Assembly: GCA_963843795.1 (NCBI GenBank)
Contig: CAWJLW010000006.1
Location: 2,108,001-2,172,000 of the forward strand
From: an uncultured bacterium
GTDB lineage: Bacteria > Armatimonadota > Abditibacteriia > Abditibacteriales > Abditibacteriaceae
Direction: 5' to 3'
DNA: 64,000 nt
Shown in pieces: positions 6,001 through 9,000 of this stretch. The position numbers were made by a program. Every line of letters begins with the position of its first letter. Position 1 is the first letter of the stretch.

Positions 6001-9000
6001 CCCGCGCTGCGCGCGATGTGACGCGCCTGACCCGATAGCCGATGAATTGGTGATAACGTGCGTCCGACCAAAGCCCACGCGCCCAGTCCCGCCGCTACCG
6101 CCACGACCAGACAAAGCAGCCACAAGTTGCGCGCTTGATCGTTGAGCGTGCGCTCGACGCGTTCCCAAGGCACACCAACCGTAACTTCAAGCGGCCCGAA
6201 AGCGAAATAGGTCGCGCGCCACGCCGCGCTGTTAGTTCTTACCGGCAGTTCGCCTTCGATCACGCGCGTACCGCCGCTGGTAATTTCAACGATCTGCCCC
6301 TTGTCCAAAGCCTTGCCATCTTCACTCCTGAGCCACCGCTGGCCCATCAGCGCGCGCCGATCGGGTGAAAGCGGCGGCGCGCTGCTGAAATTATCCACAA
6401 CTTCTGACCCCGAACGACGACGCGGACGACGTGAATCTTCGTCGCCATTTTCGCTGCTTCGATTTTCATTATCGTTGCTTCGCGGCGGGCGATTGCGCGA
6501 ACGCGGTTGCAGCCACACGACAACATCGGATTCGATGCGGCGCGTTGAAGAACGCGTATTGCGGGCAGCGAGCAAACGCACTATATCGCGCGCATCGGTT
6601 CCAGTTGTTAACTGAGCACGCACATCACGCGATGCGCTACGCAAAATAATTTGCGCGCGATACTCCGAGGCACGCCGCGCGTTCCACACGAGCGCCATCC
6701 CAATCATCGCCATCACGATGACAATCGCCATCACAAAGCCCGAAGTCATGCGCGCTCGAATCGAATGAAACATTGGTGAGAAAAGTGAAGTTAAGAAGGT
6801 GGAATGGCGAAAATGAAAGCTAAAAGTGCGCTGCAAGTACTTGCAGCGCACTTTTAGCTTTCATTTTCGCGCATCGAATAACCGGCGCCGCGCACGGTGT
6901 GAATAAGTGGTTTTTTGTGGCCGCGATCAATTTTGCGGCGCAGATAAGAAATGTAAACTTCGAGCACGTTGTCATTGCCATCGAAATCGTATTGCCAGAC
7001 GTGTTCCAAGAGCGCGGCGCGCGTCAAGACCGAACCGGCGTGGCGCATCAGATATTCGAGCAACGTGTATTCGGTCGAAGAAAGCGCGATATTTTTGCTA
7101 CCGCGTTGCGCCTGTCGCGTGGCCGGATCGAGCTTGAGATCATCGACTTGTAACGCGACTGGCGAACTCGCGCCGCGCCGCAACATCGCGCGAACACGCG
7201 CCAAAAGTTCATCGACTTGAAACGGTTTGACCAAGTAATCATCGGCTCCGGCATCCAAACCCTGTACTTTGTCTTCGGTGGTGTCGCGCGCGGTAATCAT
7301 CAAAATCGGCGCGCGGATTTCGCGCGCGCGTAAGCGGCGACACACTTCCAGACCGTTCAAGCCGGGCAACATCACATCCAATAAAATTAAATCGAAAGCC
7401 TGTTCGCTGGCGGTTTGCAAAGCGCGCGCGCCATCGTCGCACAATTGCGTACCGTAACCGGCTTCGCCCAACGCCTGCACCAGAAAGCGCGAAACCGCGT
7501 CGTCGTCTTCAACTACCAAAACGTTCATAATCGCTCCCGTTTATAGCTCCTTTTTATTTCGTTGGTTTTCATTGTAGCCAACATAGAGTGACCGTATTGG
7601 GTTACTGAAAAGATTCACAGTTTCAAAATTGGCTCGCCAAACCTTGGCAAATCTGGCAAGGAATTGTTAAAATTACAGTTAATCCAAAAGGAGGTGGTCA
7701 GAATTATTAAACAATCTGGACGAGGTGGGTGCGAGTCTTAACTCGCTACTCAGGCTTCACACCTTTGGCGCAAGCCAACTTTGGTTGATGACTGGTTAAG
7801 ACAATCCCACGCATCTGCCGAACACGCACGCTCCGATTCGTTCATTCGAATCGGGGCGTGTTTTTTTGTCTCGCGCATTCTTTCTTCGCATAATTTCAAC
7901 AGTTGATCGAACAAGCAGTTGCACACAGCAAGTACTTGCAGCAGGCTTCGCGCCGCCTCTTTGCGCAAAGTGTCACGATTAGCCACACTACAGGAGCTAT
8001 GATTTCTGTTTCCTTCCCCGACAATTCCGTCCGCGAATATCCCGACCACTCCACGCCACTTGAAATCGCCCAATCCATCGGCAGCCGTTTGGCCAAAGCG
8101 GTTCTGGCCGCGCAAGTCGATGGCCAGATGTGGGATTTGACCCGACCTTTGCCCGGCGATTGCTCGCTGCGTTTACTCACTTTCGACGATGCTGAAGGCC
8201 GCGAAGTGTTTCGCCATTCGACCACACATTTGATGGCGCAAGCCGTTCAAGCCTTGTATCCCGAGGCTAAATTGACTGTCGGGCCACCTTTGGCCGATCG
8301 CTTTTATTACGACATCGACATGGCACCGATTTCCGAAGCCGATTTCCCCAAAATCGAAGCCAAAATGCAGGAATTCGCGCGTCAGGATTTGCCCATCGAA
8401 CGCGAGGAAATTTCGCTCGAAGCCGCGCGCGAACTGTTCAAAAACGATCAATATAAGCTCGAGCTGCTCGAAGACATTCCTGAAAAGGAAACGATTTCGA
8501 TTTATCGTCAGGGCGATTGGTGCGATTTGTGTCGCGGGCCGCATTTGCCTTCGACCGGTCGCTTGAAAGCATTCAAATTGTTGTCAGTCGCGGGCGCGTT
8601 TTGGCGCGGCGACGCCAATAATCAGCAGCTGCAGCGACTTTATGGCACCAGCTATCCCAATCAGAAAGATTTGGACGAGCACATGAATCGTTTAGAAGAA
8701 GCCAAAGCGCGCGACCATCGCAAATTGGGTCGCGAATTGGGCTTATTCATCGTGTCTTCAGAAGTCGGCGTCGGCTTGCCCTTGTGGCTGCCCAAAGGCG
8801 CAACTTTGCGCCGCACTCTGGAAGAATTCATCCGCGCCGAACTCCTCAAAAATGGTTATCAGCCGGTCGTGACGCCGCACATCGCTCGCACCGAATTGTT
8901 CAAAACTTCGGGTCACATGACGGCTTATGCCGATTCGATGTATCCGACGATGACGCACGAAGACGAAGAATTCGTGCTCAAGCCGGTCAATTGTCCGTTT

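Follow-up and report, generated by a model that had tools for sequence, protein, structure and literature searches.

What kind of RNA is specified by an element of about 190 bases in which three covarying helices, a 12-codon frame started by AUU and 13 nt complementary to the 16S rRNA tail are found between a promoter and a terminator? The element is intergenic, located between a divergent response-regulator gene and thrS, in a window (the whole stretch of DNA analysed) of 64,000 nucleotides from an uncultured member of the Abditibacteriaceae, phylum Armatimonadota. A first-pass annotation had described it as a new, family-specific regulator, probably a free-standing RNA on which 30S subunits are loaded at a start codon other than AUG, with the role of an IF3-fidelity sensor or a ribosome decoy.

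Layout and genomic setting of the element

A predicted sigma70-type promoter (TTGGCA-18-TAAAAT with a TG extension, 10 of 12 consensus matches) is located on the forward strand at positions 7644-7673 of the window, which would place the transcription start site near 7679-7680. At the other end a sequence scan identified an intrinsic terminator (7826-7868), a 15-pair hairpin at 7826-7861 followed by a T run, so that the element has the promoter and terminator of its own that had been attributed to it. Both features recur in the family: 21 of the 23 Abditibacteriaceae copies have a −35 box starting with TTG and a −10 box, both at a fixed distance, and a terminator-like hairpin is present with a T run in all 23 according to a crude, uncontrolled test.

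Comparison with the 16S rRNA of the same genome defined SD1 (7687-7699), a 13-nt contiguous complement, G-U pairs allowed, of the 16S rRNA 3′ tail. Of the 1982 GGAGG sites located outside the 16S gene, none has a longer contiguous pairing than SD1, which shares first place; by free energy, with bulges allowed, it ranks only about 17th of 5672 sites. The micro-ORF (7703-7741), recognized by the conservation of its frame, starts with the AUU at 7703, 3 nt after SD1, and includes 12 codons (IIKQSGRGGCES) and a TAA at 7739-7741 that lies inside the 5′ strand of helix P2. This arrangement is the one described by the first-pass annotation, which had also called the SD invariant; that is not the case, since 2 of 18 copies read GAGGAGGUGAUC. 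A putative second SD-like site, SD2 (GAGGUGG, 7722-7728), overlaps the 5′ strand of helix P1 and precedes the last sense codon by 10 nt.

Helix P0 (7683-7686 with 7717-7720) was predicted by RNAalifold with compensatory changes. By pairing the 5′ end with the stretch ahead of P1, it leaves the SD and the start codon in the loop that it closes. In five of the six groups, the Abditibacteriaceae among them, its pairing was above every control with shuffled partners. Helices P1 (7724-7733 with 7810-7819) and P2 (7735-7742 with 7795-7802) form a structured domain (7724-7819) defined by covariation, which also includes a variable insert (7743-7794) and a conserved AAUCC-type internal loop (7803-7809). 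Two-sided changes among the first 18 copies occur at 4 of the 10 pairs of P1 and 6 of the 9 pairs of P2, that is, at 10 of 19 pairs, and 95.9% of the P1 and P2 cells are paired as compared to 86.3% in shuffled and 37-43% in slid controls; the long covarying stem seen earlier is thus confirmed. Against these helices, the single-sequence minimum free energy (MFE) structure of this copy is a different fold that sequesters SD1 and is 10 kcal/mol lower (−73.4 versus −63.4 kcal/mol). P1 is present in the free MFE structure of 10 of the 21 distinct Abditibacteriaceae copies, and in 14 when the SD region is blocked.

The element is followed on the same strand by another, separate promoter-like site (7866-7894) and by thrS, which probably begins with the ATG at 7999 and ends at 9906, the two together spanning 7866-9906; a gene for an OmpR-type response regulator is found on the reverse strand at 6854-7528. 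The neighbours do differ between genomes, as had been noted: among the 18 annotated Abditibacteriaceae copies a divergent class-V aminotransferase (serC-like) gene is present in 8, and thrS(-infC) lies downstream of the element only in this genome. Family-wide, AGU (Ser) ranks first or second in frequency at each of codons 2 to 5 of the frame. A basic 192-amino acid ORF (10004-10582, forward strand) is located between thrS and infC, and infC likely starts with an AUA at 10814 (10801-10822), behind GAGGUGA; this AUA precedes the annotated TTG start by two codons and would be expected for IF3 autoregulation.

Homology to the Ms_IGR-5 group and distribution

The 18 of 27 Abditibacteriaceae genomes in which a BLAST match had been reported were recovered, and all 18 matches proved genuine on inspection. 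A model, R1, built from 36 pattern loci and no Armatimonadota sequence, added 5 genomes and raised the total to 23 of 27; neither model nor pattern found a copy in G010, G014, G023 and G024, genomes that are 79-95% complete. The earlier statement that no Rfam family matches is correct at the cut-off. A scan by E-value, however, revealed a full-length sub-threshold match to RF02471, Ms_IGR-5 (20.3 bits against a cut-off of 45, E=0.019), a gathering threshold passed by none of the 27 Abditibacteriaceae genomes. A pattern derived from the blocks common to the element and Ms_IGR-5 matched about 810 genome stretches; among the 120 listed, 115 have the architecture and 5, left out of later counts, are chance matches. 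The RF02471 cut-off was passed by 7 of the 13 pattern loci tested, one of them acidobacterial, as compared to none of 3 Abditibacteriaceae loci, and the E-values of bridging copies against RF02471 range from 5.5e-5 to 6e-3. With R1, whose E-values are rough, the element was the top match in its genome (E=5.8e-6, against 0.10 for the next), and all 17 other Abditibacteriaceae loci were matched, L014 weakly.

Judged by these sequence comparisons, the element is almost certainly homologous to the Ms_IGR-5 group. It is a distant branch of the RF02471 group, without the pseudoknot, and not a member by the Rfam cut-off. Rather than a new regulator, it represents one branch of a group that spans several phyla and includes Ms_IGR-5, and the variation that is new here is an AUU start with a shifted frame in a known RNA group of unexplained role.

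The distribution also contradicts the idea of a family-specific RNA, as copies are present in six other families of Armatimonadota and in three other phyla. R1 matched 22 of 151 Armatimonadota genomes (12 of these in the six other families), 68 of 141 in Actinomycetota, 37 of 61 in Methylomirabilota (12 inspected) and 12 of 101 in Acidobacteriota (10 genuine by eye). Nothing convincing was found among the genomes searched in Chloroflexota (1 of 141, chance by eye); both matches in 141 Bacillota genomes were judged chance by eye, and the three in 141 Pseudomonadota genomes were two chance matches and one CC2171-like RNA. These searches scored about 22-55 candidates per genome, and R1 may miss divergent copies. 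A metagenome pattern matched about 1300 stretches, and 5 of the 120 listed were dropped as chance or ambiguous. Because copies are related by kinship and pattern scans are biased samples, all these counts overstate independence. The unpublished genomes G049, G079 and G151 are included in the parsed copies, and these together with G032, G113, G119 and G699, likewise unpublished, in the tallies; no conclusion depends on them alone. Copies L206 and L259, from sequences titled Gammaproteobacteria and Acidobacteriota, are nearly identical to mycobacterial and Acidimicrobiia ones; their sequences are likely mis-binned, and they were counted in the actinobacterial set among the 115.

Copy number is nearly always one per genome; the only clear case seen of two full copies is an actinobacterial genome, G052 (contigs C17 and C126). 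The RNA adjoins a tRNA gene in all six of L162, L170, L176, L209, L240 (Terriglobales) and L309, with a tmRNA nearby in L176 and L240. A divergent subtype (L181, L271, L402, L409, L411 and L467) has an AUA start, 18-19 codons and the stop at +15. A scan of viral sequences with a loose pattern gave 120 loci, none with the architecture of the element on inspection. Five viral contigs (L044, L048, L054, L085 and L148) share another conserved motif, in which an AUC codon and a stem rich in purines come after an extended SD; three of them have a frame of 7 codons. It has no Rfam match at cut-off and is possibly another SD-based RNA or a leader. Three known RNA classes were discarded for the element: T-box (no match at E≤10, and neighbours that are variable or convergent), 6S RNA (RF00013; the 6S gene is elsewhere, at C6:968901, with 70.9 bits) and tmRNA, the single gene for which is also elsewhere in the genome.

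Predicted translation of the frame and possible role of the RNA

The start codon had been given as AUU in 16 and AUA in one of 18 copies. AUU or AUA is indeed found in 17 of the 18, with a split of 14 AUU, 3 AUA and 1 AUG, and the full set of 23 Abditibacteriaceae copies has 19 AUU, 3 AUA and 1 AUG with frames of 12-15 codons. Across the 288 parsed copies of all phyla the starts are UUG (128), AUG (90), AUU (23), GUG (19), AUA (15), CUG (12) and AUC (1), that is, 237 UUG, AUG or GUG and 51 AUU, AUA, AUC or CUG, as assigned by a start picker that favoured AUG, GUG and UUG whenever in frame. AUU or AUA can therefore be considered a trait of the lineage. The median SD-to-start distance is 11 nt in AUG copies and 8 nt in AUU, AUA and CUG copies; the mode for ordinary AUG genes of this genome is 6 nt (crude filter, 80 sites). 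AUU and AUA starts behind extended SDs are reported to yield about 10% of the AUG output in Staphylococcus aureus (PMC13009471).

Of 292 distinct copies, 290 show the fixed stop and two are cut by contig ends. The frame is intact from start to stop in 288 of the 290, the exceptions being L416 and L181, the latter broken by one extra base that is perhaps an assembly error. Within the variable stretch there is no in-frame stop in any of the 290 copies, as compared to 172 and 35 in the other two frames. The length of the frame ranges from 10 to 19 codons across the group, and the stop (TAG in 200 copies, TGA in 47 and TAA in 43) is fixed inside P2; in the family copies too, as had been observed, indels keep the frame and TAA, TAG or TGA stands at one position. 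All 12 held-out Methylomirabilota copies fit the architecture, three of them as judged by eye. The frame passes through P1 as one type in 249 copies and as another in 41, the latter comprising every copy from Armatimonadota, an AUU copy of actinobacterial origin (L309) and a small number of further ones. Residues vary along with the base pairing, and in the pattern set a strand of the pseudoknot is formed by the Trp codon, which changes together with its partner. Since the frame shifts between lineages, what selection keeps appears to be translation and not the peptide. This conservation makes it very probable that the RNA is translated or at least bound by ribosomes.

The 5′ strand of P1 opens with GAGGUG(G/A), 7-11 nt before the last sense codon, which is similar to the SD1-to-AUU distance of 8 nt. 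In the 86 copies obtained by BLAST or models, and not by patterns, the AGG.G of SD2 is invariant and, in 85 of them, followed by G or A, as in SD1. In the SD2 stretch of P1 only the 3′ partner changes; the distal pairs covary freely. We consider the chances about even that SD2 pairs with the 16S tail of a terminating ribosome. The same conservation would result from a tertiary or protein contact and may also be structural, as SD2 is a helix strand favoured by the patterns and models used.

Published data on the homologues come from Actinomycetota. IGR-5 of Mycobacterium smegmatis is listed as a validated, NAD-capped and uncharacterized sRNA in bioRxiv 10.1101/2021.12.14.472595, and expression of Ms_IGR-5 homologues is reported for M. 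smegmatis, Streptomyces lividans and Streptomyces avermitilis in PMC10454040, PMC8079986 and PMC8780764. In a table of PMC4974804 the M. abscessus homologue has 70 RPKM in RNA and 3737 RPKM in Ribo-seq, the highest footprint of the 36 ncRNAs listed, and the ratio that we computed, about 53, is also the highest of the 36; footprints are reported in M. smegmatis as well. The same supplementary file gives tRNA ratios of up to several hundred, and its authors caution about co-sedimenting RNPs, so Ribo-seq/RNA ratios of short structured RNAs are unreliable. A literature search, with most subscription papers outside its scope, found no functional study of the Ms_IGR-5 RNA. A link between the element and scr4389 was looked for and none was shown.

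The promoter, the terminator, the extended SD and the AUU frame support the proposal of a stand-alone RNA that would load ribosomes at a non-AUG start. As a tentative reading, to which we give slightly less than an even chance, the RNA could be a mini-mRNA that holds a ribosome and acts through occupancy rather than through its peptide. A 30S subunit would dock on SD1, and initiation would be slow, either from a near-cognate start (AUU here) or, in AUG copies, from a start far from the SD. The 70S ribosome would then read through, melting P0, P1 and P2, and at the stop SD2, whose spacing from the P site resembles that of an SD, would bind the 16S tail a second time and delay release. The net effect would be a small pool of parked ribosomes with the 16S 3′ end covered, either throttled or protected. 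That parking or protection is the purpose is an equally tentative suggestion, falling a little short of an even bet. An SD oligonucleotide shields 16S rRNA from RNase R in vitro (PMC10901742). The main point against a bulk store of ribosomes is the low RNA level of the M. abscessus homologue (70 RPKM in the table mentioned above), as such a store would be stoichiometric. The decoy suggested by the first-pass annotation comes close to the ribosome-holding reading.

The main rival of the ribosome-holding mini-mRNA is a translation-driven RNA switch, in which passage of the ribosome unfolds P0, P1 and P2 and exposes or destroys a protein- or RNA-binding surface such as the AAUCC loop, so that the RNA reports translation capacity. 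The frame crosses every conserved helix and ends inside P2, an alternative fold that sequesters the SD is predicted, and the Actinomycetota copies carry an additional covarying pseudoknot on the frame. An internal anti-SD is present in 12 of the 32 Rfam-found actinobacterial copies, but it is not family-wide, and as a switch common to the family it is unsupported (3 of 18 Abditibacteriaceae copies and 5 of 85 in the pattern set). As neither a target nor an output has been identified and a 13-nt SD would be unnecessary for it, we give the switch perhaps one chance in four. A functional micropeptide would account for the integrity of the frame and for a WTxEVAxR pattern that recurs in the pattern-selected set. 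The frame nevertheless differs between lineages (EVA and RGG types), even inside Actinomycetota (L309), its Trp codon changes with the pseudoknot and its lengths are 10-19 codons, which make a peptide product improbable. The AUU branch in particular, in which the start codon and the frame could change while the act of translation was kept, removes the peptide as the likely product.

A sensor of initiation fidelity under IF3 would explain AUU or AUA in 22 of the 23 Abditibacteriaceae copies, and in this genome the element lies upstream of thrS-infC, with an infC that likely starts with AUA itself. Most copies elsewhere start with UUG, AUG or GUG, one Abditibacteriaceae copy uses AUG, and rejection of AUG, GUG or UUG starts by IF3 is not known. 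A downstream output is lacking, and thrS is the context in 1 of 18 copies; this part of the first-pass proposal is thus unsupported and slightly less probable still than the micropeptide, although sensitivity to IF3 could be a side effect in the Abditibacteriaceae lineage. A CreT-type RNA toxin or part of a type I toxin-antitoxin pair is less probable again. CreT likewise combines an SD, a mini-ORF and a stem and acts as an RNA (PMC10097628, PMC8501985). Its toxicity requires efficient starts, whereas those of the element are weak. In a scan of the 95 flanking ORFs at E≤1e-5, a generic AAA match to an ABC transporter was the sole exception to the absence of cas and toxin-antitoxin domains, the promoter scan revealed no antisense promoter, the RNA is nearly always single copy, there is no fixed pair of rare codons and the peptides are hydrophilic. 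The least probable of these explanations, hardly to be expected, is a leader-peptide attenuator of thrS-infC or of whatever gene follows. Here an SD, a short ORF and a terminator do lie just upstream of thrS, but the genes downstream differ between copies, with a convergent orientation in mycobacteria and others, a promoter-like site of its own precedes thrS, and the frame includes no run of Thr codons.

Comparison with known systems

Few conserved structured bacterial RNAs are known to act on the ribosome itself. Both tmRNA and SprF1 are structured RNAs that engage the ribosome. The former has a short frame ending in a stop, and the element differs from it in having no tRNA-like domain; SprF1 is an antitoxin without the conserved frame of the element. 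CreT, the RNA of the CreTA modules, resembles the element in its SD, mini-ORF and structure and in acting as RNA and not as peptide (PMC10097628 and PMC8501985), and differs from it in its efficient starts, its location in CRISPR-cas loci and its control by CreA, none of which is seen at the element.

The Caulobacter sRNA CC2171 (RF01867), which is not mentioned in PMC4117421, has in its consensus a 5′ module consisting of an extended SD followed by GUG at 7 nt, as in the Acidobacteriota and Methylomirabilota copies, and a 3′ part that is unlike the Ms_IGR-5 group. The CC2171 model (cut-off 75 bits) gave no match to the element at E≤1 and matched two other copies over the 5′ part only at E=0.12 and 0.40. 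Conversely, the Ms_IGR-5 model matches weakly in Caulobacter, and the CC2171-like RNA found among the Pseudomonadota with R1 (L503:1469-1634, reverse strand, genome G870) is a weak R1 match that scores 46.7 bits with RF01867. By their sequences RF02471 and RF01867 may be linked.

The closest known RNA is Ms_IGR-5 (RF02471), that is, IGR-5 or ncMSMEG15794c of M. smegmatis and ncMab10731 of M. abscessus. The two share the extended SD in a loop closed by P0, the short open frame, a P1 that starts with GAGGUG, the stop inside P2, the AAUCC-type loop, a 3′ hairpin and the organization as a stand-alone gene. The element differs in scoring below the Rfam cut-off, in its fixed AUU or AUA start, in a stop at +15 instead of +13, with a different frame through P1, and in its longer P1 and P2; it also lacks the hairpin of the GUCC-loop pseudoknot, the terminator following directly after P1. 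Pseudoknot pairing shows no excess in the Abditibacteriaceae (3.19 versus 3.29 shuffled), in contrast to the Rfam-found actinobacterial set (4.67 versus 4.08 shuffled, maximum 4.49). Neither P0 nor P1, in the form described above, appears in the consensus structure of RF02471, and the table for M. abscessus lists the homologue as an ncRNA. Although its catalogue entry is that of an actinobacterial sRNA of unexplained role, the group occurs in roughly half of the genomes sampled in Actinomycetota (68 of 141) and Methylomirabilota (37 of 61), plus two more phyla, and as a homologue is expressed in M. smegmatis and Streptomyces, the proposed mechanism can be tested there directly. It is conceivable, if rather doubtful, that Ms_IGR-5, the AUU branch and perhaps CC2171 form a single old multi-phylum class of double-SD mini-mRNAs, with loading by a super-SD, a dozen codons and re-anchoring by a second SD at the stop. 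Such a class would represent RNA-based parking and shielding of ribosomes, with the start codon tuned in each lineage, as a counterpart of the protein hibernation factors.
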